NCBI GenBank assembly: GCA_025839675.1
Contig: CP104013.1
Coordinates: 1,890,001 to 1,922,000 of the forward strand
DNA length: 32,000 bases
Origin: Candidatus Lokiarchaeum ossiferum
GTDB taxonomy: Archaea; Asgardarchaeota; Lokiarchaeia; Sigyniarchaeales; Promethearchaeaceae
Reading direction: 5' to 3'
The first letter of the stretch is position 1, and every line of letters begins with the position of its first letter. A program made the translations under genes and the position numbers. Of the stretch, positions 4,103 through 32,000 are shown in pieces. The notes beneath the pieces were generated by a model, which saw only the letters and a program-made list of their open reading frames with translations, made no database searches and had not been told where the DNA came from.

Positions 4103-4153
4103 TTTTATCCCACATTCTTATGTTACAAAGCTAAATAAGATCAGAATGTTTTT

Positions 4154-5428: not shown

Positions 5429-5429
5429 T

Positions 5430-6689: not shown

Positions 6690-6825
6690 CCTTCATCATT
6701 CATCCTTTTATGTATTCTGCTTTCCAATTTCTTTACTTATATTATGAAAGCGAAATCAATAAGATATTCCATTTGATTTTAGTGAAAATAAAAAAATAAC
6801 AATAAAAAGAAAAAGAATGAAGAAT

Positions 6826-7611: not shown

Positions 7612-7761
7612 TTTCTTTATTCCTCATAATATTTCAATCTATATTACTTTCCTCTGTTTTTAAAATCAAATAAAACCTCATGTTAATCTATAAATAACTC
7701 TCAAAATTACCTCTCCAATAACGGATTTTAAATTGGAAGATGGTATTAATTTATTATAATA

Positions 7762-15805: not shown

Positions 15806-17917
15806 ATGGTAAAGGAAAATGAATCTCCTACAAGCGCACTTGGAAAACACTTGGCCGTATTAAGCTCAGATATCCGATTGCAAATATTGCGAATTCTCTA
15901 TGAAACCCAATATCCTGTGGAATTTAATGAGATTCATAAAACCCTCCAATCCCATTTTTCAGAATTTGTTAATACATCCTATCATCTTAAGCGTTTAAAA
16001 AATATGGATCTAATTATCGGAGATGACAGAGGTTATCAATTAACAGATATCGGCTCACGTGCTTTCAGAAAGTTAGTAGATCTAGAAGACATCATATCAA
16101 CTGATCGAGTCATATATGTCCGTACTTCAAAATATTCTTTGGAACCTTTTGATGAGTCCATTATTGAATCAAACTTACAATTAGAAGCAAATATGACGGC
16201 AAAACAAGCTCAAACTATTGCCCAAGAAGCCCGAAAAAGATTGAAGAAAGCGAACATCACATATTTGACCACCCCTCTTATTCGGGAATATATTAATGCA
16301 ATCTTAATTGAAAACCAATATGAAGACTATCGTCACAAACTAACCCGTTTAGGATTGCCTCCTTATGATATTAATCAAATAATCTTCTCAGAACAAAAAA
16401 TGGATCCTGAAATATTGCGTTTGGATTTTGGCACGACAATTTTAGAGCAATATGTACTCTTAAACCAAATGCGACAGAAATTTGCAGATGATTTACTATC
16501 TGGACGATTTGTTCTCACAGATTTAGAACACTATGGGATATCACCACTAGAACTATTACTCCCGGGAACTCAGTTCACACATATTTTATATGCTTATTAT
16601 CTAACTACATTCACAGAAAATGAAATACAATCCATCTTCGATCTCCCTTTTCAAGATTTTTTATTTAACCTTACACGGTTTTTAGAGCAAATTTCACCCT
16701 TTTTTCCAAAAGGACTGACAATAATCCGATTTGATGAATTTGTATCACAATTTTTGAATTATTACACTCCGCAAGAATTGACCTATCTTATTAAATTTGG
16801 ATTTTTCGTTAAACAAAATATCTCTAAGTGGCCAATAATGTTAGGTATATCCTTAAAAGCCAATTTGATAGAAGTGGAAGCATTATTGCAAGCATATAGC
16901 GAAATTTCAAAGATACAGCAGAATAATCCTTTCCCTAAAATCCAAATTCATCACGGACATACGAAGTTTAAAGCCTTAACAAACACTTCTGATTTTACAG
17001 ATCTTAAACCCGTTTATCAACAAATAATTCAGCTCATGCAAAAACAGTCTTTAATCTTAAATCAATTTTCGCAATGGGGAAAACCGAATACAGAACATAT
17101 TTTTACGAATTTAAAAATTCCAATCAGCTTTGAATCGATGGAGGGGTTAAAACCTTCAATTGTTTTGGAAAAAATATCCATTAATGTCCTTAAAATCTAT
17201 TTAGAACATGGTACCGATGAAAAACAGTTCTTTTCAGAATTAGAAAAATCCGTCTTTCATATTTTTGATTACTTTGAACTTAAATCCAAAATATTAAAAA
17301 AAAACTTAGTTCACTTTCCAGGATGGCAAAGTATCAATACTTGGATATTCAACCAAAAAGATCCCTTTGTGGGATGGAAGGATCATCAAAAATATGCAAG
17401 CCACACCCCTTTAATATGTGGAGTATCATGTCATGGGTTAGACGAGTTAATATATCTGAAAACGGGATTATTTATCCGAGAACAGAGTCAAAATCGAAAA
17501 ATTGCATCGGATATTATTCAATTTATAAATTCTCTCCTCGAAAAACAAAATGACCACCTAAATTGCGAGATAAGATATGTTTTTAGTCAACTCCATTGTC
17601 AAAAGGAACTAGAACGTCCAACCAATCATATCTTAGATCAATATAAAGAAAAATTATCGGACCAACCTGAAGAAATCAAAGATGGATATCGCTATGGGTA
17701 CTGTGATACTCAAAAAATAATCTCCAATGATAATTTTAATCAAATTTATGCTGATTTGGTTGAATTAAAGAATCAGTTCATTTTAATCCAGAAATCTAAT
17801 CAATTTTTATCAAAAGAACAAACTGATAAAGAATTTTATTTAACCCTTAAAAATATACTTTCAACTGGAATATGTGGAATAGATGGCTCAGATATTCAAA
17901 AAATGGGATTACAATGA
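15806..17917 (+). CDS. winged-HTH / ATP-cone / class III ribonucleotide reductase (NrdD)-like protein, probably non-catalytic
   Basis: 703 aa. Residues ~14-95 look like an ArsR-type wHTH (IRLQILRILYETQYPVEFNEIHKTL...TSYHLKRLKNMDLI). Residues ~102-183 fit the ATP-cone pattern (VIYVRTSKYSLEPFDESIIESNL...AQTIAQEARKRL...LTTPLIREYINAILIE). The remainder shows NrdD-like blocks (LLSGRFVLTDLEHY vs G-x-IHIHDL; LEKISINVLKIYLE vs the NLPR block). I see no glycyl-radical motif and no C-terminal Zn ribbon. The CDS itself is secure. The function is inferred. Confidence 0.6.
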   Translation: MVKENESPTSALGKHLAVLSSDIRLQILRILYETQYPVEFNEIHKTLQSHFSEFVNTSYHLKRLKNMDLIIGDDRGYQLTDIGSRAFRKLVDLEDIISTDRVIYVRTSKYSLEPFDESIIESNLQLEANMTAKQAQTIAQEARKRLKKANITYLTTPLIREYINAILIENQYEDYRHKLTRLGLPPYDINQIIFSEQKMDPEILRLDFGTTILEQYVLLNQMRQKFADDLLSGRFVLTDLEHYGISPLELLLPGTQFTHILYAYYLTTFTENEIQSIFDLPFQDFLFNLTRFLEQISPFFPKGLTIIRFDEFVSQFLNYYTPQELTYLIKFGFFVKQNISKWPIMLGISLKANLIEVEALLQAYSEISKIQQNNPFPKIQIHHGHTKFKALTNTSDFTDLKPVYQQIIQLMQKQSLILNQFSQWGKPNTEHIFTNLKIPISFESMEGLKPSIVLEKISINVLKIYLEHGTDEKQFFSELEKSVFHIFDYFELKSKILKKNLVHFPGWQSINTWIFNQKDPFVGWKDHQKYASHTPLICGVSCHGLDELIYLKTGLFIREQSQNRKIASDIIQFINSLLEKQNDHLNCEIRYVFSQLHCQKELERPTNHILDQYKEKLSDQPEEIKDGYRYGYCDTQKIISNDNFNQIYADLVELKNQFILIQKSNQFLSKEQTDKEFYLTLKNILSTGICGIDGSDIQKMGLQ

Positions 17918-18021: not shown

Positions 18022-18768
18022 TTATCTTGCAGAAATAGCCACACGTTCCATTTCGTCTTTACGCTTAATGGATCGGGAATTGGCATCATTACGTGCACCT
18101 AAAATTAACTCGTTAGCCAATAATTCATCAATAGTTTTGATGTTATTATAAGCTAATCCAACTGTACCTTGCACAATTAATTTAATAGCAAGATCTACGC
18201 GACGTTGTGGAGCAATATCAACAGCTTGTTGGTAACTAATTCCACCTAAAGAAATTCGAGTAGTTTCTTCACGAGGTGCGGCATTCTCAATTGCTGAAAC
18301 TAAAACTTGGATTGGATTTTCTCCCGTTTTATATTCAACTAATGCAAATGCGTTGTATACCATCTTGATAATTTTTTGTTTTTTACCCATATTATGGGAA
18401 GAACCACGACCTTTAATCCGTTTTCCAACGAGACCAGGGGTCATAATTTTGTTAATGAACCGTTCCACGACAGAAATATGTTCAGTTTTCCAAAATTTCT
18501 TGTGTTGGTGTTTTCCACCAGAATGAGGAATGATAACAGGATCTAAATTGATATAATTTTTTAAACTGAGATCTTTTACTTCGACTCCTTCAAAAGACCA
18601 TCGATTGAAGAGCAAAATCCCATGTGTAGCAAGTTTTTTTAATTTTTGTTCTTCGGTATCCTCTACAACTACCATATCAATTTTTTCTTCTTTGGATTCA
18701 ATATCTTCGTCGTTTTCTTCTTCTTCGACAATTTCTTCCTCAGGTTTTTCTTTTTTCTTTTTTGCCAT
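18022..18768 (-). CDS. rps7: ribosomal protein uS7 (S7p/S5e) with N-terminal acidic extension
   Basis: 248 aa. The core from LLFNRWSFEGVEVKDLSLKNYINL to KKDEMERVAISAR is colinear with archaeal and eukaryotic S7/S5. The ATG at 18768 is preceded by GGTG with an 8-nt spacer, directly after the S12 stop. Confidence 0.93.
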   Translation of the reverse strand: MAKKKKEKPEEEIVEEEENDEDIESKEEKIDMVVVEDTEEQKLKKLATHGILLFNRWSFEGVEVKDLSLKNYINLDPVIIPHSGGKHQHKKFWKTEHISVVERFINKIMTPGLVGKRIKGRGSSHNMGKKQKIIKMVYNAFALVEYKTGENPIQVLVSAIENAAPREETTRISLGGISYQQAVDIAPQRRVDLAIKLIVQGTVGLAYNNIKTIDELLANELILGARNDANSRSIKRKDEMERVAISAR

Positions 18769-18780
18769 ATTTCATTCACC

Positions 18781-19224
18781 TTATCGAACTGCCCGTTCTT
18801 TCTTTCCTTTGATTAAAGCATCTAAACTGACACCATTAACTTTAACCACTTTCCATCGGATTCCAGGAAGATCCCCGACAGCACCACCCATAGCACCACC
18901 AATTCCAACAACTTGGACGGCATCGTGCTCTTCAACAAAAGTTAAAGCGGCATCACCAGGAAGGAATGCACTGACTTGTTTTCCATTTTTACGTAATTGA
19001 ACTCGGACGCATTTTCGAATAGCACTGTTTGGCTGTTTGGATTCGACTCCAATTTTTTCTAATACGATTCCTTCTGCCATAGGAGCGGCTTGAAGGGGAT
19101 CGGTCTTTTCTTTAATACGAAGAACTCTGCGTTTATAATTAACATCGCTCCAGCGGAATTTTTTCCGTTTATTCGCGAGGGCACGAGCTGCGTATTCGCC
19201 TTTTGGACTTTTTGTTCTTGCCAT
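18781..19224 (-). CDS. rps12: ribosomal protein uS12 (S12p/S23e)
   Basis: 147 aa. [31 protein letters not shown]-type core and [15 protein letters not shown]. Confidence 0.95.
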
Positions 19225-19257
19225 GTTTTAATCTCCAATTATTTAGTTTCCAAAAAA

Positions 19258-19623
19258 TTACTCAACAGCTTTTAAAATAGAAGAATCTCCTTCTTCTAAA
19301 ATTCCGATGGTTGAAACCCAAAAGGGTTTTCCACATGATGCCCCTAATTCCCAGGAGCTGTTCTTTGAAATGAAAACGGGAACAGGATTTTCTAAGCATC
19401 CATTAAGGAGGCTTATTTGATCTTTTACTTTTGTAGGTGTATTATTGGCGAGAACTAATAATTTTAATTCTCCCATCGATAATTCACGAATCACCGATTT
19501 TGCACCTAACAAAGTCTTCCCAGTCTTCACTGCAACATTAATCTCTTTGTTCTCATCGAACGAAGATTTTGCACTGGTTCGCTTTCTGCGCTTGAGTTTC
19601 TGCTGACCACGTTTGTAACTCAT
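19258..19623 (-). CDS. rpl30e: ribosomal protein eL30 (L30e)
   Basis: 121 aa. VKTGKTLLGAKSVIRELSMGELKLLVLANNTP...ELGASCGKPFWVSTIGILEEGDSSIL matches the L30e/L7Ae fold family. Its position after rpoA2 is canonical. It has a basic N-terminal extension of about 25 aa. Confidence 0.85.
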   Translation of the reverse strand: MSYKRGQQKLKRRKRTSAKSSFDENKEINVAVKTGKTLLGAKSVIRELSMGELKLLVLANNTPTKVKDQISLLNGCLENPVPVFISKNSSWELGASCGKPFWVSTIGILEEGDSSILKAVE

Positions 19624-19640
19624 TTTTCAAACAACTCAAT

Positions 19641-19652
19641 AAATTTTATATT
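19641..19652 (-). promoter_or_regulatory. TATA-like box for L30e (possible leaderless transcript)
   Basis: On the minus strand AATATAAAATTT is centred about 23 nt upstream of the L30e ATG. No SD-like sequence intervenes. The 184-nt gap after rpoA2 argues for a separate promoter. Confidence 0.35.
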
Positions 19653-19783
19653 CCAAATTCACAAGAATCTAGAACTACGATAGATAACATAGCATTGATA
19701 AAAAATTTTGTCAAAACGTTAGGAAAAAGTTAAATAAGGCCAAGTTCCGAGAGGTTCCACTTACCCATCATTCATTGGAAGGT

Positions 19784-19797
19784 AAAAAGTAAAAAAA
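19784..19797 (-). terminator. oligo-T termination signals after rpoA2
   Basis: On the transcribed strand a T7 run and a T5 run occur within 25 nt after the rpoA2 stop (19808). Confidence 0.35.
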
Positions 19798-19807
19798 TTG
19801 GAAAAGA

Positions 19808-21061
<1,254 letters not shown>

Positions 21062-21073
21062 TTACACCTTTAT

Positions 21074-24000
21074 CTATTCTAACTTAGTAAGCTCCCAATT
21101 TTTATATATTTTGGTTGTTCGACCCCGAACAATAGCTTTTTTACCCGTTTCAATATTATAAAGTTCATATTTCTCTTCAATGGTGAGACTGGAAAATGGT
21201 TTAGTTGTAAGATCTACCGCTTTAACTTCTTCAGCAGGTTTCTTTTCTTCCTTAACGGATTTTACTTCCTTTTTCTTTGGTTTTTCTACTGGATCGTCTT
21301 TCTTTTTTGATTTTTTCTTCGCAGTAGTTTTCTTCTTAGAGATCTTTTTCTTCGATTCTGCAGCAGCCTTGGGTGTAGAAGGGATTTCTTCCTTCGATTT
21401 TTTATCTGAAACTTCTTCCTTCTTTGAGGCAACTTCCTTTGATTTTATTCTCGGTGAATCTTTTAATACATAATCAACTGGAAATTCCGGATGCTGTTTG
21501 CCATCGAGAACTTCAGCAATGCCTTTTTCTTTGGCGAGTAAATCTTTGTATCGTCGAGTTTTAAGAATAACTTGATCAAAATTAATAATATCTCCAGAGT
21601 CAGAATTAGCCGGATCGATTCCATCATCCCCATACTTGAACTGAATAATGCTTTTTTCTGAGGTACGAACAGTTAAATCATTTTCAACAACCATATCTTG
21701 CAAAGCGTTGACAAGTCGACGTTGCATATACCCAGAAGAACTGGTTCGGACAGCAGTATCAACTAATCCTTCACGACCTCCCATTGCATGGAAAAAGAAT
21801 TCGGCTGGGCTGAGTCCCGTTCGGTAAGAGTTTAAAACAAACCCCCGGGCTTCAGGAGAGAGATCATTAACTTTGAAATGAGGCAATGTTCGATCTATAA
21901 AACCCCGATGAATTCGATCTTGTCGCACGGATTGTTGACCAACACAAGCAGCCATTTGGGCTAAGTTCAAAGGATTTCCACGAGCACCTGATTTGGTCAT
22001 AATAACCGAATGGGCTGTATCCCCTAAGAAATCAGATGCAATTGATCCAGCATCTCCACGTACCTTATTTAAAAGACTCATTAGGTTTAATTCTAAGGTT
22101 TCTTTTAAGGTTCGGCCGGGAGCACAAGGAAGAACTTCTTCATCTTCATCATAATAGGCTTTGATTAACCGATTTGCATCAGCATAAGATTGATAAATAG
22201 TTGCATGAATGTCTTTACGAGCGCTTCTAACATCAACTTCATCAATTCCCATTGTAAGCCCAGTTAAGGTAATTACCCAAACCATCATACTTACGAAATC
22301 ATCTAAAAATTGACGCCCTCGATTTTGACCATAATCTTTGATAATTCGATGGAGAATACTAGTGGCTTTCCCATCACCCATGATATTTTTATCTATTACA
22401 CCTGATACCATTTGACCATTTATGATTTGATCGTAACCATCGCTTCCCTCAACTAAACCTTCTTCTTTTCGATAAAACTTGGATTTCAAATCCATATTTA
22501 AATCATGAGGTAAAATACAGCTGAAAATTGATTTTCCGGAGTACTTCCAATCATTTTTTGGATCTTTAGGATTCACCGGTATCAAGTCTTTATCAATATC
22601 AAAACCGGGATTGCGCTTAAACACTTTTCCCCAATACAGTAAAGAAAAAGTATCTTTTCGATCGAAAACATTAGGAACTCCGGGAGATTTTTCATTACGA
22701 GTAAACATATACCCAACTGAAATGAAATCTTGGATTCCTCCAATAATTGGAGCACCCATACGAGGAGAGATCATATGTTCTTGAACTTTAAGTAAGTATT
22801 CCGCTTCAGTACGAGCTTCTTCACTTTGGGGGACGTGAAGATTCATTTCATCCCCATCAAAATCTGCGTTATAAGGAGGACAAACAACTAAGGCTAAGCG
22901 AAAGGTTTGACCTTGCATAACCTTCACCTCATGAGCCATGATGGACATCCGATGGAGAGAAGGTTGACGGTTAAAGAGAACTAAATCCCCATCCCGTAAA
23001 TGACGTTCAATCACAAAACCTGGTTTTATAGTGGAAGCTACAATTTCTCTAGCCTTAACAAAGCGTAAGTCAATACGTCGGCCATCTTCACGAATAATAT
23101 AGTTCGCACCAGGATGTTTTTTTGGACCATTCATTACCGTTTGTTTCATGTCCTCAATATTAAATTCGGTAACAAAAGTAGGAACCGTCAAAATTTTCGC
23201 AATTTTTTCGGGAACTCCCACTTGATTTAAAGAAATATGTGGATTTGGAGAGATGACGGTTCGAGCAGAAAAATCCACCCGTTTTCCGGATAAATTACTT
23301 CGAAATCGCCCTTCTTTTCCTTTTAGACGTTGAGTTAAGGTTCGTAAAGCTCGACCAGAACGATGGCGAGCCGGAGGAATTCCACTAACTTCGTTGTTAA
23401 AATAAGTAGTAATATGATATTGGAGCAACTCCCATAAATCTTCAACAATTAATTGTGGAGCGCCAGCATCAATGTTTTCACGTAACCGTTGGTTAATCCG
23501 AATAACATCGACCAATTTGTGGGTTAAATCATCTTCAGAACGAATTCCACTATCGAGTGTGATTGAAGGACGCACACAAACAGGAGGTATGGGAAGTACG
23601 GTCAAAATAACCCATTCTGGGCGAGCAGTCTCGGGATTAATCCCTAATAATTCACAATCCTTTTCCGCCATGTCACCAAGACGTTCCCGAATATCTACAG
23701 GAGTTAGACGTTCGCCATCTTCATAAAAAGTAGTGGGCTTTTCGATGGTGATCTTCTTTTTCGGGGCCCCACAATAAGGACATTCTTTCGATTTACGTGC
23801 TGTTTTAAAAATCTCAGCAAATAATGTGTCATCAGGCTTTTCAAAGACTTCTATATACCTTTCGTGTCGTTCTTTAAAAGAAAGAATTTGATCTTCCGTT
23901 AAAAGCACACGTTTACATTCGGTACAGACTCCCCGTAAAATTTTTAATAATAATTTGGCATGACCAACATGAACCACAGGTCGTGCTAATTCAATATGTC

Positions 24001-24232
24001 CAAAGTGGCCTGGACATGCCCCAACACGATTTCCACACGTAGAACATTTTTGTCCCGGTTCAATGGTTCCCAACTTTGGATCCATTAATCCCGATTTAAT
24101 CGGTAAACCATCTTCATCATATGTATCTGCAGTGATGATTCGACCAACGGACATTTTTCGGATTTCTTCTGGGGAAAGTAGACCAAAGCGGATTCTATCG
24201 ATTACTTTTAGAGTTTCGAGATTTATTGAGAT
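21074..24232 (-). CDS. rpoA1: DNA-directed RNA polymerase subunit A' (start upstream of the first ATG; lysine-rich C-terminal extension)
   Basis: Zn motif CSTCGN...CPGHFGH and catalytic NADFDGDEMN are present. The ORF track starts at the ATG at 24154. The same frame upstream encodes the conserved IDRIRFGLLSPEEIRK. I place the start provisionally at ATC 24232..24230 (see finding). Confidence 0.95.
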   Translation of the reverse strand: MSINLETLKVIDRIRFGLLSPEEIRKMSVGRIITADTYDEDGLPIKSGLMDPKLGTIEPGQKCSTCGNRVGACPGHFGHIELARPVVHVGHAKLLLKILRGVCTECKRVLLTEDQILSFKERHERYIEVFEKPDDTLFAEIFKTARKSKECPYCGAPKKKITIEKPTTFYEDGERLTPVDIRERLGDMAEKDCELLGINPETARPEWVILTVLPIPPVCVRPSITLDSGIRSEDDLTHKLVDVIRINQRLRENIDAGAPQLIVEDLWELLQYHITTYFNNEVSGIPPARHRSGRALRTLTQRLKGKEGRFRSNLSGKRVDFSARTVISPNPHISLNQVGVPEKIAKILTVPTFVTEFNIEDMKQTVMNGPKKHPGANYIIREDGRRIDLRFVKAREIVASTIKPGFVIERHLRDGDLVLFNRQPSLHRMSIMAHEVKVMQGQTFRLALVVCPPYNADFDGDEMNLHVPQSEEARTEAEYLLKVQEHMISPRMGAPIIGGIQDFISVGYMFTRNEKSPGVPNVFDRKDTFSLLYWGKVFKRNPGFDIDKDLIPVNPKDPKNDWKYSGKSIFSCILPHDLNMDLKSKFYRKEEGLVEGSDGYDQIINGQMVSGVIDKNIMGDGKATSILHRIIKDYGQNRGRQFLDDFVSMMVWVITLTGLTMGIDEVDVRSARKDIHATIYQSYADANRLIKAYYDEDEEVLPCAPGRTLKETLELNLMSLLNKVRGDAGSIASDFLGDTAHSVIMTKSGARGNPLNLAQMAACVGQQSVRQDRIHRGFIDRTLPHFKVNDLSPEARGFVLNSYRTGLSPAEFFFHAMGGREGLVDTAVRTSSSGYMQRRLVNALQDMVVENDLTVRTSEKSIIQFKYGDDGIDPANSDSGDIINFDQVILKTRRYKDLLAKEKGIAEVLDGKQHPEFPVDYVLKDSPRIKSKEVASKKEEVSDKKSKEEIPSTPKAAAESKKKISKKKTTAKKKSKKKDDPVEKPKKKEVKSVKEEKKPAEEVKAVDLTTKPFSSLTIEEKYELYNIETGKKAIVRGRTTKIYKNWELTKLE

Positions 24233-24239
24233 TTTTTAA

Positions 24240-24270
24240 CACCTTTGATACAGTTTATATAATTATATAA
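24240..24270 (-). promoter_or_regulatory. rpoA1 upstream signals: TATA-like box and Shine-Dalgarno-like AAAGGTG
   Basis: On the minus strand, TTATATAATTATATAAA lies at 24270..24254. AAAGGTG lies at 24246..24240, 7 nt upstream of ATC 24232..24230. Confidence 0.4.
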
Positions 24271-24374
24271 TGAGAATTAGTTGAGATAGAAACTCGTTCC
24301 TCGTTCATGAACAAAGGTATAAATACGGCATATGTAAAAAATTTTTTGATTAAAAAGGACTTTTCTGCCGTCTA

Positions 24375-24421
24375 GGGCTTTTTTTTCCCTTGAAAGATAG
24401 ATCAACCAAAAAAAATAGCCC
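24375..24421 (-). terminator. imperfect hairpin plus oligo-T runs downstream of the giant ORF
   Basis: GGGCTTTTTTTT (24375-24386) and AAAAAAAATAGCCC (24408-24421) form an inverted repeat with a 2-nt bulge, starting 11 nt after the stop codon. On the transcribed strand it is flanked by T-runs, the usual archaeal termination signal. Confidence 0.35.
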
Positions 24422-24431
24422 AAAAAAAAAA

Positions 24432-27400
24432 TTAATCCCGATAAAATATGGCATCTTTCAATAAATTAGCATTATCCAAACAAATTTCAGCCATGTTCGC
24501 ATCTTTGGATTCATTTCTATGACGATCACATTCTTGGGAGAAATAGGTAATGGAATCATGCAAATCCGGAATTTTTTGGATAAGAATATCAATTTTTGTC
24601 CGTAAATTCAAAGCATTATCGGCATCCCCAATTTTACAATAAATATCTAAGATTTTCTGATAAGTAATTAAAGCATTAATCCAATCTTCCACTTTTTCAA
24701 AAGAAATGGCTTCTTCCATTAAAATTTCTTTGGACTGAATAAATCCGGCCCGCACTCCATCCATGGCCGTTTTCATTTCTCCATCTAGTTCATTCATTTT
24801 TTTGAGTAGATTATCAATATCGGAGTGATATTTCTTGATATTGGAATTTTCAGCGCCGATCCCGAACTTAAACAGAATATTCGAAATGAGTAATAACTTT
24901 GTATTAAGTTCAGTTTGCATGAATAAATCCTTCGCTTTGGTGGCCGTTTTCAATTCTTTCAACAAAAATTTCCGATATTCTATTAATGTCTCCTTGGTAT
25001 AATATTCCTTATCACAAACGGAATCCTCACAATATTTTAATGCTTCTCCAGAGCGCTTAACCAAATCTTTAATATTATCCTCTACTTCAATATACCCCAT
25101 CTTAAATAAACTGTGGGCCGCTTCAAGAGCAAGTTTAAACGCATTAAAAGCACTTTGAAATTCCTTTGCTTTCATGAATTTTTGCCCTTCTTTGGTCTTT
25201 TGTTTTAAGGTGGTTTTATATTTTGTCACCGTGTTGGATAGGACTAAATTTCCATAGGTCTTTCCGAGATTTTCCATATTCCATTGATAGGCAATTACTT
25301 CAGCAATTTCATAATTCCGAATAGCTTCATCAAATTCATGAGACTTAAGGGCTTTTTTCGCTAATTTATTCAATTCTTTAATTTCCTTGCGTGCATCACC
25401 CTCAGTTTCAAAGATTTTAGATTTGATGACTTCCCCAGTTGTTTCAGAAGTAATTGTTAGGGTTTGCGATAAGGATTGGATCGCCACATCTCGCTCCGCT
25501 TCAGATAGTTGTGTAACATCTGTTAAAATTTGCTGTTTTTCGTCCTCTGATTTATTCGGGATCGCCCAAACGCGTTCTCGAAGAGTACGCAGTTCTTGAT
25601 CAGTCAACGCCTGTTCTTCGAGAACATCCAACTTGATTGGAGTGAGGATTTTTGCATCTAAAAGTTCAGTAATAGATAAAATAATCTCTCCGGGTTGTTT
25701 TTTGGTCTGATCAATCGCGACTGAGAGAAGTTGAGCTAAGAACATGAAATTGCGTTCTTCGGTGATCAATGTCTTGGATATTTCCAAAATTTGTTTTGTT
25801 AGCGCCCGAGAAATTCCTTTCAACAATTTTGAATCAGCATTATACTGATGGGGTAAAATAACCGATGTATTCAAGATATCATCAATTAAATCGCCTGCAT
25901 CTGCAAAAGTATTAAGTTGACCACGCCATTTTTCTAATTTTGTATGATAATCGGCTTCAAACCTTCCAACAAATTTCGCTAAATTGCGCTTCATATAAGG
26001 TGAAGCAGATTTTCCTAGCACTAAAGTGACCCGAATAAACACACCATCGGAGAACAGTAAAATCTTATCACCATAAGATAGCTCATTTAACGATTTTTGA
26101 GATTTAATTTCTTTTCCAAAGGATTGCACAGCGGAGAGAAAACCTGAAATTAGATCTGGATCGAGTTCTTCTTCGGCAAAGGACTTGAAGAACAATGAAA
26201 CCCCTGTCGCCTTATGAATGATCATAATATGATGTAAATTAATCGCATCATCAAAGATCGTGGAGGAAGACATCACTAAATCAGTATAATGCATTTTTCT
26301 AGGAGCAATCACTTTCTTTTGCACAACTATTGCCAATGAAACACTCCCTACAAGAATCAACAATGCTGGAAGGAACCACGAAGGTAATATAGTCGGACTA
26401 ACAATTTTCGCACTAAAGGCTGATGCTTGATCACTTACTCCGTATAATTCACCTCCATATTCTATAGTTAAAACCAAATTCTGATAATCCCCTTGTGGAG
26501 CAATAAAAGTAAATACAACATGTCCGGTAGCATTTGTTACCCCTACAAGTACCGAGATTTCAGTTTTATTGGTCAGTAACCTTACATCCCCATCAATTAT
26601 TGGGTAACTAGTTGAACCATTCGTATAGGATAACTTGAATATGATATCATAGGATTCTCCTTGCACTAAAGTATCGGGCATGTATATTTTTTCAATTAGC
26701 ACCGCATACTCTCCAATAACCGTGATATTAAACGAATATGAAACAGTTTGACAGCTGGAGAGAGATAATTGGATTGTTATTGGCCCAGTTCCAATAACAA
26801 GTTCAGAAGATGAGATGAACCACCCATAGTTCCCACTGTTGCTTGAATTGAGAGCAATTAGTTCTCCATTATAATAACATGTAGCTATTGCACCACTAAG
26901 AAAGTTATCCGTCACACCATCAATATAAGTTATATTAAACTGAATCCCAAAAGGCGAAAAAACAACATAGGAGTTCTCACTATTTATTGAAATTAATCCA
27001 GTTTCTTGTTCAGGCTGAGAAATTCCGTAGAAATCGGATTTAGTTGGCAGTATTGTTAATGTGATATTAAAGGATACTGATTGATTAACATAATTCTTTA
27101 ATCCGATAAGGATGGATATATTGTAGGTACCTACTTCAAAATTAGCTGCATTAATTGTCCAACTATAAACGCCATTCTCAATTAATGGTGAAAGATAATT
27201 TTCTCCATCAAAGGTTAAATTGGTCAACTCTGCATTGGATATTCTCAGATTATTAGTTGAATCGAGGTATTCATAGGCAATAACTAAATCATAAGGCATA
27301 TAGACCGTATATCCCATAGTTTCTCCATTATAATCCAATCCTTGAGAGTGATGAGAAGGTTGGGAGATACTAATAAAATCAAAAGTGGTTTCTAAATAGA

Positions 27401-30400
27401 ACAAAGTCATATTAAACTGAATAGTTGCTGTTTCATATTCATTCAATGAAAATTGAATAGTAACATTAATCCATCCTAATCCGAATGATGATAAATTTGC
27501 AGAAGGAATAAACCATCCATATAAATTATTTGCGAAATAATTGGATGAAAATTGAGTACCATTTAGATATATATTGGAGGTTGCTCCAGCAATGTAAACA
27601 TTGTCAGCATCGTTGTAATAAGAAGCATTTATATGTAGCCCATATTGCATAAATACTCGATAACCAGCATTTGGATTTATTAATGCTAATGGAAAAGAAT
27701 TTCTTGTCGGTTGATATATATCTTCATCAAAATCTCCGTATGTTTCTAATAAAATTATATTCAAATTTGTTGAAACAGAAGCGTTGGTTAAAATGTCGTG
27801 TCCAAAATGAAATTCAATGGGATGAACTCCAAGACCAATACTGGTTAAATTTGAGACAGACAGCTTAAAACCAAATGTATGAGCAGAGGGATTAAACCAA
27901 TAAATTGAATAATTTGTATTTAAAAATTCTATAAATACCATCGATGGATCATCAATATATTGTAAATTCCCGAAATCATAGTACGATACATTGATATTCA
28001 TTTCATAATGCATATATACATCGTACGAACCACTTGTTGGACTAATGTTATTTGAACTTCGTGGAATTTGTTGTACCAATTCAACTTGGATATCTGTGGA
28101 TAATTCATTAACAGTAATGTTAAACGAATATTCAAAGTAATCATAATCGGTCGCATTGAATTGAAAAGTCAAATTGTATGTATTTTTTAATAATAGAATT
28201 TTGCTAATATTCCATGAATAAATTCCATTTTGAGTTGAAGTTCGAAAGAAATTTTGACCATTGAAAGTTAAATTAGCAGTATGAGCATCAATTATATTTA
28301 TACCATCTAAAGCATCAAAATAAGTGATGTTGATTAACAAATAATAATTATTATATACAATATATCCCTTAGCTGGATCAAGTAGATCAAAGTAATCGCA
28401 AGTATTACCATTGCGATCTGGTTGAGTAATTTCATCATTTAAATCCGCGCTAGTTGGAATGTTGGTGATTGTTATATTGAAAGAATATGTAACAGGATTA
28501 TAATCACTCAAGAAAAAAGTAATTGAGATATTTGATGTACCGAGTGGTAAATCAAGATTATCGATCACCCAAGTATATTGATCATTTGCATTAAATGACG
28601 GAGTATTGCTATAAAATACGCTATCAATGTATAAAGTTCCAGTAGCACCTGAAGGTACAAACACAGAATTATTCGTGTCAAAATATGTAACATTTACCAA
28701 AACATCATAATGAGTATAGGTAGTGAAGCCCAATTCGGGGCTTTGAAAAATGAGTAGATCATCATTTCGTTCTGGCTGAGATATGTGGTCAAATACAACA
28801 GATGTAGTTAAATTTCGCACATCAAGAGTAATGGTTATTGAAGTAGCATTTTCAAAATCTATTAGACCATAATAAAGAGTTATTGTATGTATTCCTATCG
28901 TTAACCATGATGATGGAACAGTATATAAATATGTGCCATCCCCATGATTGGTCATTGTATAATTATCCGAGCCATCCCATTCTAAATTGCGTAAACTAGC
29001 ATCTGCAACACCTGATGCAGTAAGGGTAGCGAGATAAGATCCTTCAATTTGAAGATCGTAATGTGCATATACAACATATTGCCCAGTCTCTTGATGCAAT
29101 TGATTTGCGGTATGATCTGTCTGTGTTATACTCGTATAAGTGGCAATAGTCTCTAAATCGAGAACTGTGATATTAAATGAAGTACTTGCATTTTGATAAT
29201 TATCAAAACTTACATCAATTGTAATATTATATTCTCCAGATGAATATCCCGTAAAATCAAGTGTACCTTCATTTCTAGTTCTTATTTGAACATAGCTAAA
29301 TGTAGCAGAAGCAATTGAGTTTGGAACACCATTAATATAAACAAAATAAGTGAAATCATCAAATTGAATAGCAGGTATATTAAGGCTTCCAGAATCTAGA
29401 TCAATATACTGAAAATTAACAGCTACACTACGATCTTGTTGAAATATTGAAAAATCATTTCCAGATCCAGTTAAAGTTGGTTCAGATAATCCAAGAGAGC
29501 CAATAGATGTAGCATTTCCTGATATATTGAATCCAACAAAAAGAATGCTAGTTAAATAATTTGGACTATAAGTTAAATTAATTCTAAGTAGATATTCACC
29601 AACATTAATTCTGGAAATTCCGCTTGAGCCCAATGAAACATTAACTAAGTAAGCACCATTACCTAAAGACCATAATCTGTAGGCTGACGTTTCATCCGTA
29701 GTCCAATTTGTATTACTTGTCCCTTCATATACATATAATGCACTATTAGGAACATCATTTAAACCTGAACTGATAGAAATATCATCCACATTTATGATTA
29801 TTGATAGATTTTTGTTGCTCGGACGTGAAATAACGGTATTATTTAAAGATACCAAAGATATTGCAGTTGACGCAGGAGTAGTTGTAATATTGAAAATAAA
29901 ATCTTGTGGTTGGTAATTACTTGCACTGATTGAAAAATTAAACAAGTATTCATTCACAATTGGAACGCTTGTATTTAATTCAATAGTATAATGGCCATTT
30001 GCAGACTCAACATAACTCCATTCAAATGAATCAATTTCATTCACGGAAATAAATGCATTTGAAATACCTTCTGTTGGCTGTGAAATATTGTAATATTGCA
30101 TTTCATAAGTAGCATTAATCCCTCTAATTGCATTGAAATCATTTGATGTAATATCTTGAACTTGGGTTGGATATTCTACTGTTAATTCATAAGTAAATGT
30201 ATGATTCATATATTTAGAATTGTTTATCATAATTGTGAGTACGTGATCACCTGCGGGATATGTTGAAGGATCGATAGTTACATTGTAGGTATTATCTGCA
30301 TTATTTTGAGCCGTATTTTCAACCCAACCCGAAATATCTGAAAATCCAATTGTTGCACCAGCAATATGGACAGGAGAATTAGTTATATCTTCATATGATA

Positions 30401-32000
30401 CAGAAATATTGAATGGAATGTCATTTGTATGAACAATAGAACCATTAGCGTGGGGACTACTAGTAGAATATTGTGAGACACCTGCAATGAAAACACTAGT
30501 ATCGTAAACTGAAACATCTGTTTCATTACTCCAAACCAATTGAACGCGAAAATCACCATACCCAGCAAGTGAACCCGCAGAAATATCCCAATCATCGAAG
30601 GTATTAACGGAAGTACTACTTCCTACCGATATTACTGGATTTGTTGTATACACCATTTCATCATTTACATCACTAGGATGATAAATAGTTAAATTTACGA
30701 TTCCGTTCAGATTTTCTATAAAAGTGGAATTTAATTCAAGAGTGCTATCAGAATAAGCAAAATAGGGTTCTGACAGTTCAACACCTCCTATACCAATTTT
30801 AATATCGGAAATAAAATTTGTAGAACTGCAAGTCAGTGTCCATTCTCCATTAACAGCACTAGCTCCATCTACAGTTATAATTTGGGACGTAGAATTCGAC
30901 CATATAGGTGTGTTCCATAAAACAGCACCACTTTTATCTAGGGATGTTGCAGTCCAACTTATGGGAATAGTAAAATTGATTGTTTCATATGAAAGATCTG
31001 AATCTGCACTAAGACTAGAAAAAGTTGAAGTGGAAGTCCAAGTGACATCATTACCATGATCAACCAAATATGATGTTGGAGCTTTAAATGATTGAGTATA
31101 ATTAACTGAAGTAAAATTAATATCTGCGGAATAATTCCCCCAATCAGAAGATACAATAAATTCAATATTACTAGAAGAGCAATATTCACCAATTGTATCC
31201 CAATAACCTGAATTGTGACTTGGGGAAGAAGTATTATTATTAACTGCAGTCCCATTTATAGTCAATCCAATAGATTCTGGGTCAGGAGCAGTCACACCTC
31301 CAAGATCTAATGTCACCTTAGTTAAAAAATCAACAGTATATGATTCAAATTCTGGAACGAATAAAATTCTTGGAACATCTAATTTAAAAGAGTCAGCTTC
31401 ATCCCCTTCAGTATCTTCAGATCCTCCTGAATCAGCACAATAGCGCCACCCCACAGCGAAACTATCATTATATGCCATTCGTATTCCAATAAACCATACG
31501 TTATTAACAGTATTAGAGCTAAGTAATTCTTGATTAAGATTTGTAAAATCAGCCCAGTAAGTTCCAGCTGCAGCATTTAAAGTAATACTATAATCAGAAG
31601 AAGTTAAAGCAGATTCTTTTGGAACATATCTTCCCAAGAGAGAATTCCATTCCCCACCATAAATGTGTAAATATAAATCTCCCATGTCGGTACCCGATTT
31701 AGAGATATAGAAGGATGCATCATCCAAATAGCAATCACCAGTAGTGTTGAAATTTATAACATATGTAGGAGCCAACCCAATAGGAACTACACTAAGAGGT
31801 GAAGAATCTTCAATATCATTCTGAATATCGTAAGCTTGAATATTATCAAAAGTAATATTTGTTTTTGAAGTGGTAAAACCTTGAGGAGCAGGACGACTAA
31901 AAGATGTATTAGTTTGATTAACTTCAAATAATGTAGTATTTTCGGTAGCTTGATGGAGAGTCACATTAACATTATTATAATCTCCTGAAAGAGAAGGAGA
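24432..32000 (-). CDS. giant single-pass membrane protein (partial): extracellular tandem Ig/beta-sandwich-like modules, cytoplasmic longin/roadblock-like domain and helical-repeat tail
   Basis: The frame is open from the TAA at 24432 to the window edge. The GTG at 31964 is only the first in-window start, and codons 31965-32000 are also open. At least 1,858 N/S/T/Y-rich residues contain dozens of N-x-S/T sequons and recurring ...SFNITV module ends. A single TM helix, WFLPALLILVGSVSLAIVV, spans 26322-26378 and is followed by QKK (positive-inside). The cytoplasmic region is 626 aa. Confidence 0.85.
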   Translation of the reverse strand, partial: SPSLSGDYNNVNVTLHQATENTTLFEVNQTNTSFSRPAPQGFTTSKTNITFDNIQAYDIQNDIEDSSPLSVVPIGLAPTYVINFNTTGDCYLDDASFYISKSGTDMGDLYLHIYGGEWNSLLGRYVPKESALTSSDYSITLNAAAGTYWADFTNLNQELLSSNTVNNVWFIGIRMAYNDSFAVGWRYCADSGGSEDTEGDEADSFKLDVPRILFVPEFESYTVDFLTKVTLDLGGVTAPDPESIGLTINGTAVNNNTSSPSHNSGYWDTIGEYCSSSNIEFIVSSDWGNYSADINFTSVNYTQSFKAPTSYLVDHGNDVTWTSTSTFSSLSADSDLSYETINFTIPISWTATSLDKSGAVLWNTPIWSNSTSQIITVDGASAVNGEWTLTCSSTNFISDIKIGIGGVELSEPYFAYSDSTLELNSTFIENLNGIVNLTIYHPSDVNDEMVYTTNPVISVGSSTSVNTFDDWDISAGSLAGYGDFRVQLVWSNETDVSVYDTSVFIAGVSQYSTSSPHANGSIVHTNDIPFNISVSYEDITNSPVHIAGATIGFSDISGWVENTAQNNADNTYNVTIDPSTYPAGDHVLTIMINNSKYMNHTFTYELTVEYPTQVQDITSNDFNAIRGINATYEMQYYNISQPTEGISNAFISVNEIDSFEWSYVESANGHYTIELNTSVPIVNEYLFNFSISASNYQPQDFIFNITTTPASTAISLVSLNNTVISRPSNKNLSIIINVDDISISSGLNDVPNSALYVYEGTSNTNWTTDETSAYRLWSLGNGAYLVNVSLGSSGISRINVGEYLLRINLTYSPNYLTSILFVGFNISGNATSIGSLGLSEPTLTGSGNDFSIFQQDRSVAVNFQYIDLDSGSLNIPAIQFDDFTYFVYINGVPNSIASATFSYVQIRTRNEGTLDFTGYSSGEYNITIDVSFDNYQNASTSFNITVLDLETIATYTSITQTDHTANQLHQETGQYVVYAHYDLQIEGSYLATLTASGVADASLRNLEWDGSDNYTMTNHGDGTYLYTVPSSWLTIGIHTITLYYGLIDFENATSITITLDVRNLTTSVVFDHISQPERNDDLLIFQSPELGFTTYTHYDVLVNVTYFDTNNSVFVPSGATGTLYIDSVFYSNTPSFNANDQYTWVIDNLDLPLGTSNISITFFLSDYNPVTYSFNITITNIPTSADLNDEITQPDRNGNTCDYFDLLDPAKGYIVYNNYYLLINITYFDALDGINIIDAHTANLTFNGQNFFRTSTQNGIYSWNISKILLLKNTYNLTFQFNATDYDYFEYSFNITVNELSTDIQVELVQQIPRSSNNISPTSGSYDVYMHYEMNINVSYYDFGNLQYIDDPSMVFIEFLNTNYSIYWFNPSAHTFGFKLSVSNLTSIGLGVHPIEFHFGHDILTNASVSTNLNIILLETYGDFDEDIYQPTRNSFPLALINPNAGYRVFMQYGLHINASYYNDADNVYIAGATSNIYLNGTQFSSNYFANNLYGWFIPSANLSSFGLGWINVTIQFSLNEYETATIQFNMTLFYLETTFDFISISQPSHHSQGLDYNGETMGYTVYMPYDLVIAYEYLDSTNNLRISNAELTNLTFDGENYLSPLIENGVYSWTINAANFEVGTYNISILIGLKNYVNQSVSFNITLTILPTKSDFYGISQPEQETGLISINSENSYVVFSPFGIQFNITYIDGVTDNFLSGAIATCYYNGELIALNSSNSGNYGWFISSSELVIGTGPITIQLSLSSCQTVSYSFNITVIGEYAVLIEKIYMPDTLVQGESYDIIFKLSYTNGSTSYPIIDGDVRLLTNKTEISVLVGVTNATGHVVFTFIAPQGDYQNLVLTIEYGGELYGVSDQASAFSAKIVSPTILPSWFLPALLILVGSVSLAIVVQKKVIAPRKMHYTDLVMSSSTIFDDAINLHHIMIIHKATGVSLFFKSFAEEELDPDLISGFLSAVQSFGKEIKSQKSLNELSYGDKILLFSDGVFIRVTLVLGKSASPYMKRNLAKFVGRFEADYHTKLEKWRGQLNTFADAGDLIDDILNTSVILPHQYNADSKLLKGISRALTKQILEISKTLITEERNFMFLAQLLSVAIDQTKKQPGEIILSITELLDAKILTPIKLDVLEEQALTDQELRTLRERVWAIPNKSEDEKQQILTDVTQLSEAERDVAIQSLSQTLTITSETTGEVIKSKIFETEGDARKEIKELNKLAKKALKSHEFDEAIRNYEIAEVIAYQWNMENLGKTYGNLVLSNTVTKYKTTLKQKTKEGQKFMKAKEFQSAFNAFKLALEAAHSLFKMGYIEVEDNIKDLVKRSGEALKYCEDSVCDKEYYTKETLIEYRKFLLKELKTATKAKDLFMQTELNTKLLLISNILFKFGIGAENSNIKKYHSDIDNLLKKMNELDGEMKTAMDGVRAGFIQSKEILMEEAISFEKVEDWINALITYQKILDIYCKIGDADNALNLRTKIDILIQKIPDLHDSITYFSQECDRHRNESKDANMAEICLDNANLLKDAIFYRD
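26718..29162 (-). repeat. seven tandem protein-level modules (113-119 aa each) within the giant ORF
   Basis: Hand-delimited from the translation, residues 935-1749 relative to the in-window start. Module lengths are 115, 117, 119, 119, 117, 115 and 113 aa. Each has an (I/V)xQP(x)R-like segment near its start, a G-Y-x-V-Y...Y-x-L-x-I-N-x-T-Y core and a Y-S-F-N-I-T-(V/I/L) end. The modules are divergent at DNA level, so this is not a nucleotide satellite. Confidence 0.8.

Follow-up and report, generated by a model that had tools for sequence, protein, structure and literature searches.

A giant type I surface protein of Candidatus Lokiarchaeum ossiferum with a predicted longin/Roadblock-fold domain beneath its transmembrane helix

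The giant gene and its product

At one end of a 32,000-nucleotide stretch of the Candidatus Lokiarchaeum ossiferum genome (GenBank assembly GCA_025839675.1, contig CP104013.1, forward-strand positions 1,890,001 to 1,922,000; hereafter, the window) lies a giant minus-strand gene, immediately upstream of rpoA1. The gene is intact and encodes a 2,566-residue type I (N-out, C-in) single-pass surface protein, whose cytoplasmic tail begins with a domain predicted to adopt the longin/Roadblock fold and continues with two winged-helix-like units and a C-terminal alpha-solenoid of the tetratricopeptide repeat (TPR) kind. On the outer side, the transmembrane helix is preceded by a long array of immunoglobulin (Ig)-like modules and, distally, by a non-repetitive head. 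The coordinates of these parts, and of the other features discussed below, are collected in Table 1.

A first-pass annotation of this DNA, made from the letters and a list of open reading frames (ORFs), had described one uninterrupted ORF of at least 2,522 codons with its N-terminus outside the window, and had proposed that the full frame be recovered and its beginning inspected for a signal peptide. Both expectations were borne out. On the minus strand, the frame is open for 2,522 codons from position 32000 to the stop codon at 24432-24434, with its 5' end beyond the window; the GTG start listed at 31964 is purely formal, as the ORF lister requires some start codon. A library-wide profile search recovered the full-length protein, designated P0069 (WP_457919335.1), which is 100% identical to the translated window across 2,522 of 2,522 residues and corresponds to UYP45289.1 (locus NEF87_001574), a 2,581-residue model that uses an earlier ATG. 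In the 6.04-Mb genome of Candidatus Lokiarchaeum ossiferum B-35, NEF87_001574 is annotated as "hypothetical protein". The 44 N-terminal residues that fall outside the window, MKKNSYSCIIFLIIVLGSIPSNSNVKIIEEIENEVIANPIAQDY, comprise a basic n-region, a hydrophobic core, and a short linker, and are predicted to form a typical signal peptide; a similar N-terminus is present in full-length homologues elsewhere.

At the DNA level, the window was compared with the Logan assembly of sequencing run SRR22273277 and showed no mismatch over 20,927 nucleotides, and no tandem repeat was detectable in the gene when looked for. Frameshifts or stops splitting the ORF into separate genes, which the first-pass annotation had named as the finding that would overturn its reading, are absent from these 20,927 nucleotides; because the frame is open, the protein 100% identical, and the Logan DNA free of mismatches, this objection is without support.

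Table 1. Features of the giant gene, its surroundings in the window, and Roadblock-related genes at orthologous loci. Positions are those of the window unless a locus (L number) is named; residues are counted from the first residue encoded in the window or, where stated, from the start of the cytoplasmic tail.
Feature	Position	Strand	Remarks
Giant type I membrane protein gene	24432..32000	-	window holds residues 45-2566 of 2,566
Distal head, non-repeat	30501..32000	-	residues 1-~500; alignable over full length in 9 orthologues
Three divergent Ig-like copies	29163..30488	-	residues 505-608, 633-706, 859-946; other sequence interspersed
Seven tandem Ig-like "extender" modules	26718..29150	-	residues 951-1761; ~110-115 residues each
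Membrane-proximal module	26403..26717	-	residues 1762-1866; unlike tandem units, part of conserved block
Single transmembrane helix	26322..26390	-	residues 1871-1893, ILPSWFLPALLILVGSVSLAIVV; sole strong hydrophobic segment
Juxtamembrane domain, predicted longin/Roadblock fold	25935..26306	-	tail residues 6-129; alpha-beta-beta-alpha-beta-beta-beta-alpha
Two winged-helix-like units (predicted)	25422..25901	-	tail residues ~141-300; start at invariant ILPH
C-terminal TPR-like alpha-solenoid (predicted)	24435..25406	-	tail residues ~306-628; helical hairpins, pLDDT ~90
Intergenic region, giant gene to rpoA1	24155..24431	-	T-rich stretch after stop, A/T-rich promoter-like region, probable true rpoA1 5' end
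Upstream rpoA1 coding part (probable)	24155-24238	-	also in L001, L004, L006, L007, L008, L072
TTCATGAAC motif	~24296-24312	-	also in L007, L008, L072 intergenic regions
Reduced RNA polymerase/ribosomal cluster	18022-24154	-	
Gene for 703-residue protein	15806-17917	+	
Replication gene cluster	3182-8109		GINS51, PriS, PriL, PCNA
115-residue ORF behind replication genes	7762-8109	+	
Roadblock-GTPase fusion	L006 4273-5304 (MK-D1, QEE18064.1); L072 846-1922; 14 further loci		
Stand-alone Roadblock/LC7 gene (cluster 17)	L082 13276-13635; 13 other loci		

Membrane topology and sequon content

The segment that crosses the membrane has a Kyte-Doolittle score of 2.46, and all 15 of the 15 top-scoring hydropathy windows are located there. 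Its C-terminal flank (QKKVIAPRK) carries a net charge of +3 and its N-terminal flank a net charge of 0, consistent with the positive-inside rule and a cytoplasmic C-terminus. N-x-S/T sequons number 71 in the 1,870 ectodomain residues, as compared with 37.5 +/- 5.1 after shuffling at constant composition, whereas the 629-residue tail holds 3 against 3.5 expected; the enrichment is thus about twofold outside the membrane and absent inside, and N-glycosylation of the extracellular side is predicted from it. The layout proposed at first pass, in which one transmembrane helix separates an extracellular array with dozens of sequons from a folded cytoplasmic region (an alpha/beta domain and then helical hairpins, about 630 residues in all), was recovered in each of these respects, and the sizes given there (at least 1,858 residues outside, 626 inside) lie within a few residues of ours.

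Architecture of the ectodomain

Across nine diverged orthologues, the distal head can be aligned end to end; 30 of its residues are invariant, many of them Trp, and its conserved N-terminal motif, N(I/V)TLHQ(A/S)Y, is found in full-length homologues too; sequence and profile searches returned no Pfam or PDB relatives. Between head and membrane lies a stalk composed largely of about ten Ig-like units. The seven tandem modules, delimited by self-comparison and an iterated hidden Markov model, are ~30-37% identical among themselves, and a profile built from them detects the three divergent copies at independent E-values of 8.5e-30, 8.9e-21, and 4.1e-13. The extender modules, in which no repeat is detectable at the DNA level, are old and diverged.

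The first-pass annotation had characterized these modules as beta-sandwich-like. In support, the repeat profile matches the Ig-like RII extenders of MpIBP, the ice-binding repeats-in-toxin (RTX) adhesin of Marinomonas primoryensis (4p99, the RII tetra-tandemer, E 6.3e-9, in four stretches) and the RTX adhesin 5irb (E 1.1e-4), although the match spans just positions ~43-85 of 109, or ~40% of the unit. A Pfam Invasin_D3 match at residues 521-595 is sub-threshold (22 bits vs a cut-off of 33). Because the first match is partial and the second sub-threshold, the beta-sandwich character of the modules is supported but falls short of proof. The full ectodomain, the tail, and several full-length orthologues gave nothing over threshold in Pfam or NCBIfam, and no RTX Pfam match was found, in a protein that has a signal peptide, an internal transmembrane helix, and a cytoplasmic C-terminus. 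In one profile search (A3), columns just N-terminal of the transmembrane helix weakly matched the MG domains of alpha-2-macroglobulin (E 4e-4); the membrane-proximal module alone had no significant PDB match.

A predicted longin/Roadblock-fold domain in a three-part tail

The first 331 tail residues were modeled by AlphaFold with 67 aligned sequences at a mean predicted local distance difference test (pLDDT) score of 80. An alignment of 11 sequences had left the juxtamembrane domain below 50, and it was with 67 sequences that the domain was resolved. Its predicted elements (H, helix; E, strand) are H6-27, E28-35, E41-46, H54-71, E79-82, E85-91, E95-101, and H107-129, and the same alpha-beta-beta-alpha-beta-beta(-beta)-alpha order recurs in two independent models. 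When the model was compared with the PDB by Foldseek, all 50 of the 50 matches listed were longin/Roadblock proteins or complexes containing them. The best match was to AP-2 sigma (E 1.6e-4, TM-score 0.57-0.61, root-mean-square deviation 3.1-3.6 Å), and the others listed include AP-1 sigma, Fuzzy, COPI zeta, MglB, TRAPP Bet5/Trs23, LAMTOR, Mon1-Ccz1, and MK-D1 Roadblock2. The Foldseek probability was 1.00 for AP-2 sigma, COPI zeta, MglB, TRAPP, LAMTOR, and MK-D1 Roadblock2, with target TM-scores of 0.5-0.64. At fold level, then, the predicted structure places the juxtamembrane domain in the longin/Roadblock superfamily, and the alpha/beta domain that the first-pass annotation had called regulatory-looking is present and can be given this fold by AlphaFold and Foldseek.

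Sequence comparisons found no counterpart of the domain. The tail has no Pfam match at E<=0.01, Roadblock/LC7 (Robl_LC7, PF03259) included, and a PDB profile search with the juxtamembrane domain returned no informative relatives. Membership of Robl_LC7 was considered and rejected, there being no sequence match by Pfam or HHalign; because the HHalign comparison with true Roadblock proteins was non-significant, we keep the domain out of that family and name it longin/Roadblock-fold only.

Behind this domain, the model shows three helices and a beta-hairpin, twice, at a pLDDT of ~77-93, an arrangement that resembles a pair of winged helices and opens with the invariant tail motif I154-L155-P156-H157. 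No PDB sequence relatives and no helix-turn-helix (HTH) Pfam match were found for this region. The third, or putative "recognition", helices each carry a net charge of -2, with 0 basic residues in the first unit and 1 in the second, and the second unit has an overall net charge of -6; because these helices are acidic, DNA binding is disfavored.

For the C-terminal solenoid, Foldseek returned generic TPR proteins only (LGN/Pins, Hop, OGT, and designed TPRs) at E-values of 5e-4 to 1e-2 and with low TM-scores, and the tail has no TPR Pfam match. The modeled hairpins (tail residues 306-623) bear out, as a fold class, the long helical TPR-like repeats described at first pass, and we regard the region as TPR-like at that level.

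A large Asgard family built around the juxtamembrane domain

Run against 1.84 billion cluster representatives, a profile of the ~146-residue juxtamembrane domain identified 7,345 clusters at E<=1e-3 and 1,847 at E<=1e-10. The organism-named matches are all Asgard (Loki, Hel, Hod, Heimdall, Thor, and Hermod) bar one, a weak match (E 1.5e-6) in a metagenome-assembled genome (MAG) labeled Nanopelagicaceae, a bacterial family. Among the 135 best evaluable representatives, 124 have a transmembrane-like segment within 60 residues before the domain, and sequon density is 4.25 per 100 residues on the N-side of that segment vs 0.49 on the C-side. The 11 members that lack the segment provide a natural control and are mostly sequon-poor, with 0-3 sequons before the domain in 10 of the 11. 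A module of transmembrane helix plus longin-like domain defines the wider class. The median cytoplasmic part of the family, 278 residues, accommodates the longin-like domain and the subsequent units, and because of this figure the TPR extension is taken to be peculiar to the orthologous group described here. Thousands of receptor-like proteins share the juxtamembrane domain, and no current domain database covers the family.

The members without a transmembrane segment include the soluble proteins P0160 (2,171 residues), P0190, and P0011. One of these three has three longin-like copies together with CARDB, TPR, and DUF5915; another, from Helarchaeota, bears a prenyltransferase/squalene-oxidase-repeat annotation; and P0011 has N-terminal HTH domains. 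Since such soluble members exist, the domain is not confined to receptors.

Orthologues and evolutionary behavior

When one genome per GTDB species was searched, 114 relatives were found among the species representatives, and the best 80 loci came from 80 different assemblies. The architecture, whose survey across archaeal genomes the first-pass annotation had proposed, accordingly recurs in at least 80 Lokiarchaeia-type genomes. These 80 loci are all Promethearchaeota-type (Loki-, Hermod-, Hod-, or Odin-labeled), except one from a Zixibacteria-labeled MAG. In L. ossiferum, the gene represents a Lokiarchaeial orthologous group that is inherited vertically and has one copy per genome. Full-length orthologues range from 860 to 3,033 residues, with ectodomains of ~400 to ~2,400 residues; that of the closed Promethearchaeum syntrophicum MK-D1 genome (DSAG12_03900) has 1,845 and that of Candidatus Harpocratesius repetitus 3,031 residues. 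The tail measures ~629 residues in the Lokiarchaeum/Promethearchaeum clade vs ~432 in most other genomes, and the C-terminal solenoid of the L. ossiferum protein exceeds that of most orthologues by about 200 residues.

The exceptional MAG, labeled Candidatus Zixiibacteriota (contig QNAH01000273.1, locus L007), holds an orthologue that is 60% identical and is directly followed by a Lokiarchaeial rpoA1. Most likely, this contig was assigned to the public MAG by mistake during binning.

The two sides of the membrane have evolved very differently. In a second L. ossiferum genome (6.27 Mb), the corresponding protein, P0068, has a tail that is 99% identical to that of P0069; of the ectodomain, the membrane-proximal module is 79% identical, against ~31-36% for the remainder (head 36%, repeats 31%), so that the P0068 head and repeats are as distant from those of P0069 as are the orthologues of other genera. 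Across the family, pairs with tails that are 85-95% identical have a median ectodomain identity of 44%. Between genera, identity to the MK-D1 and Harpocratesius orthologues is 73-77% in the longin-like domain, ~55% in the winged-helix units, 33-42% in the TPR-like region, and 17-34% in the ectodomain, which makes the longin-like domain the most conserved part of the protein. Such a pattern is in keeping with an outer recognition surface shaped by diversifying selection or by the exchange of alleles, coupled with an intracellular function held under constraint.

Contig breaks were also considered as evidence of population hypervariability and set aside: the asymmetry of 36 vs 3 is biased, since the loci were found via the tail. 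Breaks within the ectodomain-coding part may reflect co-existing alleles, with the same bias of the sample. In two Logan assemblies (L084 from SRR32148620 and L085 from SRR32148621), rpoA1 is identical and the contigs break off 150-175 nucleotides ahead of it, where the giant gene has its 3' end.

Gene neighborhood

In L. ossiferum, the gene order is P-type ATPase, ATP-grasp_5, giant gene, rpoA1, rpoA2, L30e, S12, S7. ATP-grasp_5 is found immediately upstream in 28 of 39 loci, with the P-type ATPase further out, and common downstream genes are radA, a 411-residue ORF, and aspartokinase. The first-pass annotation had drawn attention to the position of the giant gene directly before rpoA1, where rpoB would normally be expected. 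The adjacency itself stands, with a gap of 277 nucleotides, and direct adjacency to rpoA1 is common to four MAGs; any functional weight it might carry does not stand, the adjacency being confined to one clade. The orthologue and rpoA1 are 5-7.5 kb apart in MK-D1 and Harpocratesius, with unrelated genes, a transposase included, between them, and in most Lokiarchaeia radA replaces rpoA1 as the downstream neighbor. A functional link to rpoA1 or rpoB was rejected on these grounds, and because the adjacency is clade-limited and interrupted in MK-D1 and Harpocratesius, the rpoA1 neighborhood is best read as a lineage-specific rearrangement that carries no functional implication.

Two kinds of Roadblock gene occur near orthologues. 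A fusion of a Roadblock domain to a Ras-like GTPase lies two genes upstream of the orthologue in MK-D1 and Harpocratesius and adjoins the ATP-grasp gene in 16 loci in total. In the short-tail group, 14 loci have a stand-alone 120-residue Robl_LC7 gene (Pfam, 37.9 bits) two genes downstream, at +2, encoded on the other strand. The fusion proteins are ~345-360 residues long; at the N-terminus they carry a Roadblock domain (HHalign 90.7% to Robl_LC7), joined to a GTPase domain of the Ras/Arf-like kind. The two gene associations are weak hints of a GTPase link.

Proposed function

L. ossiferum is reported to lack an ordered S-layer, to display complex surface proteins in cryo-electron tomography, and to form protrusions and surface-bound vesicles, and it is enriched in small GTPases, longin domains, and adaptin-like and Arf-like eukaryotic signature proteins (PMC9834061). 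Against this background, we tentatively favor, at somewhat less than even confidence, a reading in which the giant protein acts as a receptor for adhesion or contact and docks, through its tail, partners of the small-GTPase or Roadblock/longin kind. It would belong among the complex surface proteins of L. ossiferum, with its head, raised off the membrane by a glycosylated Ig-like stalk, binding an external partner or surface. At the inner face of the membrane, the longin/Roadblock-type domain would offer a platform for docking, a role assigned to it by analogy because such domains act in this way in MglB, Ragulator, TRAPP, and adaptor complexes; what docks there would be either a small GTPase or another protein of the Roadblock or longin type. 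Further cytoplasmic partners might be recruited by the winged-helix units and by the TPR solenoid, both acting as scaffolds. Surface contacts would thereby be coupled to intracellular GTPase or cytoskeletal machinery, or such machinery would be localized at the contact. Outside-in coupling or the anchoring of an intracellular scaffold, as suggested at first pass, is plausible from fold and architecture.

A number of observations weigh against this receptor model. The longin/Roadblock assignment holds at the level of the fold, with modest Foldseek E-values (1e-4 to 1e-2); the juxtamembrane domain has no Pfam match, even at E<=10 across 20 family members; and HHalign against genuine neighboring Robl_LC7 proteins gave a non-significant probability of 0.1%, where the positive control (Roadblock vs the N-terminal domain of the Roadblock-GTPase fusion) gave 90.7%. 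The docking mechanism is drawn from fold analogy, and prokaryotic Roadblock domains are common and often plain dimerization modules (PMC12962969). Glycosylation of the stalk is predicted from its sequons, while glycoproteomics of MK-D1 found N-x-S/T glycosylation to be present yet infrequent overall (PMC11284389). The genomic hints of a GTPase partner are likewise qualified. The Roadblock-GTPase fusion is absent from the corresponding position in L. ossiferum, where the upstream stretch recovered (~2 kb) holds only ATP-grasp_5 and the end of the P-type ATPase gene, with no GTPase gene there or among the genes recovered downstream. The association elsewhere lies inside housekeeping synteny and could reflect ancestral gene order, and no GTPase is consistently found near the two small family members and the paralogue whose neighborhoods were examined. 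For these reasons, operon coupling to a GTPase was rejected.

Alternative explanations

The alternative that survives best, which we nonetheless judge rather unlikely, is that the protein is a structural component of the envelope or glycocalyx, coating the cell as a spacer or in place of an S-layer; its tail would do no more than anchor and oligomerize it, with no information transmitted. The longin/Roadblock-type domain would then dimerize, and the TPR region would serve in lateral packing or in attachment to a lokiactin cortex. To our knowledge, S-layer proteins have little or no cytoplasmic part, and a tail of 630 residues and three parts, with the juxtamembrane domain as the best-conserved region, goes far beyond what anchoring would call for. 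A sequon-rich ectodomain with a C-terminal transmembrane anchor is reminiscent of S-layer glycoproteins, and the single-copy status of this core gene, its conserved synteny, and the lack of an adjoining GTPase gene in the L. ossiferum genome all agree with a structural role. So do the dense surface proteins of an organism that has no ordered S-layer (PMC9834061) and the standing of Roadblock and longin domains as classic dimerization modules (PMC12962969). A lattice-forming protein, however, should conserve the contacts of its ectodomain, which here turns over extremely rapidly and varies from ~400 to ~2,400 residues. The idea also has to contend with MK-D1, in which 0 of 4 named PKD-domain candidate S-layer proteins were detected (PMC11284389).

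A second alternative, which we consider improbable, is that the protein is a trafficking or membrane-remodeling adaptor with its membrane anchor built in. The tail would recruit coat, ESCRT, or actin machinery, and the role of the protein would be to mark vesicles, blebs, or protrusions, to drive their formation, or to enter them by self-sorting, with no signaling involved. That Foldseek ranks small subunits of adaptors and coatomer highest, along with TRAPP longins (sigma-adaptin, COPI zeta, TRAPP), is in keeping with this idea, as are the ESCRT-II-like form of the winged-helix units, the size of a family in which the domain lies directly under the membrane in most members, and the protrusions, surface-bound vesicles, and adaptin-like, longin, and Arf-like proteins of L. 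ossiferum (PMC9834061). It is opposed by the lack of any sequence relationship to adaptins, TRAPP, or ESCRT-II, by the derivation of the winged-helix assignment from secondary-structure order only, and by the absence of coat or ESCRT genes from the neighborhoods examined. The adaptor model moreover overlaps the receptor model, from which it differs just in what the tail recruits.

A membrane-tethered transcription regulator, whose winged helices would bind DNA either in the membrane-bound protein or once proteolysis, triggered by an external signal, had freed the tail, is very improbable. Two winged-helix-like units do follow the longin-like domain, and some family members are annotated as Lrp/AsnC-type or have HTH domains (P0011 with HTH_HVO_0163_N; P0064; and P0239 with PF22451). 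Yet the acidity of both recognition helices and of the second unit, described above, led us to set this candidate aside; the absence of an HTH Pfam match and of an evident protease site or partner protease points the same way, and the HTH domains of P0011 are separate, N-terminal domains rather than the units behind the longin-like domain. Finally, an artefactual ORF, produced by misassembly or by fusion of an adhesin gene to a separate cytoplasmic gene, is effectively refuted: many metagenomic homologues are partial and 36 of 82 loci break within the ectodomain-coding part, but three closed genomes, two of L. ossiferum and that of MK-D1, show the same continuous layout of signal peptide, ectodomain, transmembrane helix, and tail, as do Harpocratesius and dozens of long MAG contigs, and the window agrees with the Logan assembly and holds no DNA-level repeat able to mislead an assembler.

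The rpoA1 start and other genes in the window

The rpoA1 gene is annotated from an ATG at 24154, and the conserved RpoA' N-terminus, (K)ISINLETLKVIDRIRFGLLSPEEIRK, lies in frame just upstream. In 7 of 7 clade genomes, the region that follows the in-frame TAA stop contains no in-frame ATG, GTG, or TTG. A Shine-Dalgarno-like AGGTG is positioned 6-8 nucleotides ahead of a conserved in-frame ATC/ATT codon (24230-24232), and the Pfam Rpb1_1 match in the annotated protein begins at profile position 20. Because of the conserved upstream frame, the AGGTG element, and the onset of the Rpb1_1 match, translation of rpoA1 probably starts from a near-cognate codon, AUC or AUU, which would leave the annotated protein ~26 residues short. 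Further upstream, the motif TTCATGAAC, which lies within the palindrome GTTCATGAAC, is conserved in several clade genomes, with an A/T-rich TATA-like stretch just 3' of it; it may be a regulatory element or an element of the 5' untranslated region.

The RNA polymerase/ribosomal cluster headed by rpoA1 is reduced: rpoH and rpoB are missing upstream of rpoA1, nusA is missing between L30e and S12, and the gene after S7 is on the opposite strand. Elsewhere in the window, the 115-residue ORF behind the replication genes has a sub-threshold match to Ten1, the OB-fold subunit of CST (E 1.8e-4, 21.6 bits vs a cut-off of 27). The 703-residue protein combines DUF7347 and an ATP-cone with a weak, partial match, below its cut-off (22.8 bits), to the anaerobic ribonucleotide reductase NrdD, and appears to have an unusual ribonucleotide reductase-like architecture.

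Implications

The small GTPases and longin/Roadblock proteins of Asgard archaea, the nearest relatives of eukaryotes among the archaea, are many, and their cellular connections are largely obscure; similarly, the complex surface proteins seen by cryo-electron tomography in Lokiarchaeum have no assigned genes. The giant gene is a concrete and conserved candidate for such a protein. If its tail binds a GTPase or Roadblock partner, the protein would be a candidate for a direct link from the outside to the inside of the cell, with a bearing on cell-cell contact models of eukaryogenesis. If it is merely structural, it would be a major envelope component and a hypervariable surface locus of use for strain typing and for studies of viruses and partners. 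Because the protein comes from a cultured organism, the hypothesis is directly testable.

A broader proposition, which is speculative and on present grounds unlikely, is that a very large class of Asgard type I receptors wires the cell surface to small-GTPase/Roadblock/longin networks, with the orthologue described here as the "core" receptor. Equally unlikely is its corollary that the hypervariable head and stalk recognize partners, viruses, or self while the invariant tail recruits a GTPase module. Were this so, the class would represent a prokaryotic forerunner of eukaryotic receptor-to-GTPase and cargo-to-adaptor coupling, and would bear on the way in which the archaeal host engaged its syntrophic partners.

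Comparison with known systems

The closest structural parallels of the juxtamembrane domain are the longin and Roadblock/LC7 platforms, including MglB, LAMTOR/Ragulator, sigma-adaptins, COPI zeta, TRAPP, Mon1-Ccz1, the SRX domain of SR-alpha, and Roadblock2 (PDB 9jq8), with which it shares the alpha/beta sandwich and the order of strands. Ragulator and SR-alpha are likewise located at the cytoplasmic face of a membrane, and the Lokiarchaeum domain is found in a lineage in which such domains and small GTPases are greatly expanded. They show no sequence similarity to the Lokiarchaeum domain detectable by Pfam, PDB profile, or HHalign, and differ in that the Lokiarchaeum domain is covalently fused to the transmembrane helix of a type I surface protein. 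We know of no longin/Roadblock family with such a fusion. Longin SNAREs are tail-anchored and have the reverse layout. The literature searched describes no type I surface protein in which a longin/Roadblock-fold domain is attached immediately beneath the transmembrane helix, and no papers on NEF87_001574 or its MK-D1 orthologue DSAG12_03900 were found. Asgard genomes encode many clusters of orthologous genes (asCOGs) with Roadblock or longin domains, among them, as an Asgard-specific expansion, NPRL2-like longin domains fused to signaling modules, and NPRL2 is described as a longin domain with a small C-terminal domain (10.1101/2020.10.19.343400). Compared by description, this arrangement is formally similar to the longin-like plus winged-helix arrangement reported here; NPRL2 is, however, absent from the 50 best Foldseek matches, no Pfam NPR2/NPR3 match was found, and fusion to a giant ectodomain through a transmembrane helix is unmentioned in that preprint (10.1101/2020.10.19.343400).

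On the extracellular side, region II of MpIBP and adhesins of the SiiE/LapA type project a terminal domain on a long chain of ~100-115-residue Ig-like extenders, as the Lokiarchaeum protein is predicted to do, and the variation in repeat number among orthologues of the Lokiarchaeum protein (860 to 3,033 residues) is a further likeness to Ig-repeat adhesins. With MpIBP region II, the likeness extends to the profile level (4p99), over only ~43 of 109 positions. RTX adhesins use type I secretion and are retained at the outer membrane, whereas the Lokiarchaeum protein has a Sec-type signal peptide, a transmembrane helix, and a 630-residue tail; it also lacks RTX repeats, is rich in sequons, and has its presumed ligand-binding part at the N-terminus. 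The S-layer and surface glycoproteins of archaea are also Sec-exported, rich in N-x-S/T, and anchored by a single transmembrane helix on the C-terminal side, but are essentially devoid of a cytoplasmic part, where the Lokiarchaeum protein has 629 residues that are predicted to fold. S-layer glycoproteins form a lattice, and L. ossiferum is reported to have no ordered one (PMC9834061); the ectodomain described here is hypervariable in sequence and variable in length.

With the integrin, cadherin, and IgCAM receptors, the resemblance is one of working logic only, by analogy: a modular Ig-like or repeat ectodomain, one transmembrane helix, and a tail that would recruit adaptors linked to GTPases and actin, with the ectodomain diversifying and the tail conserved. 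There is no homology in any part, and the longin-like, winged-helix, and TPR-like folds are unlike the tails of those receptors. The parts of the Lokiarchaeum protein resemble known kinds, namely Ig-repeat adhesins, longin/Roadblock platforms, and TPR scaffolds.

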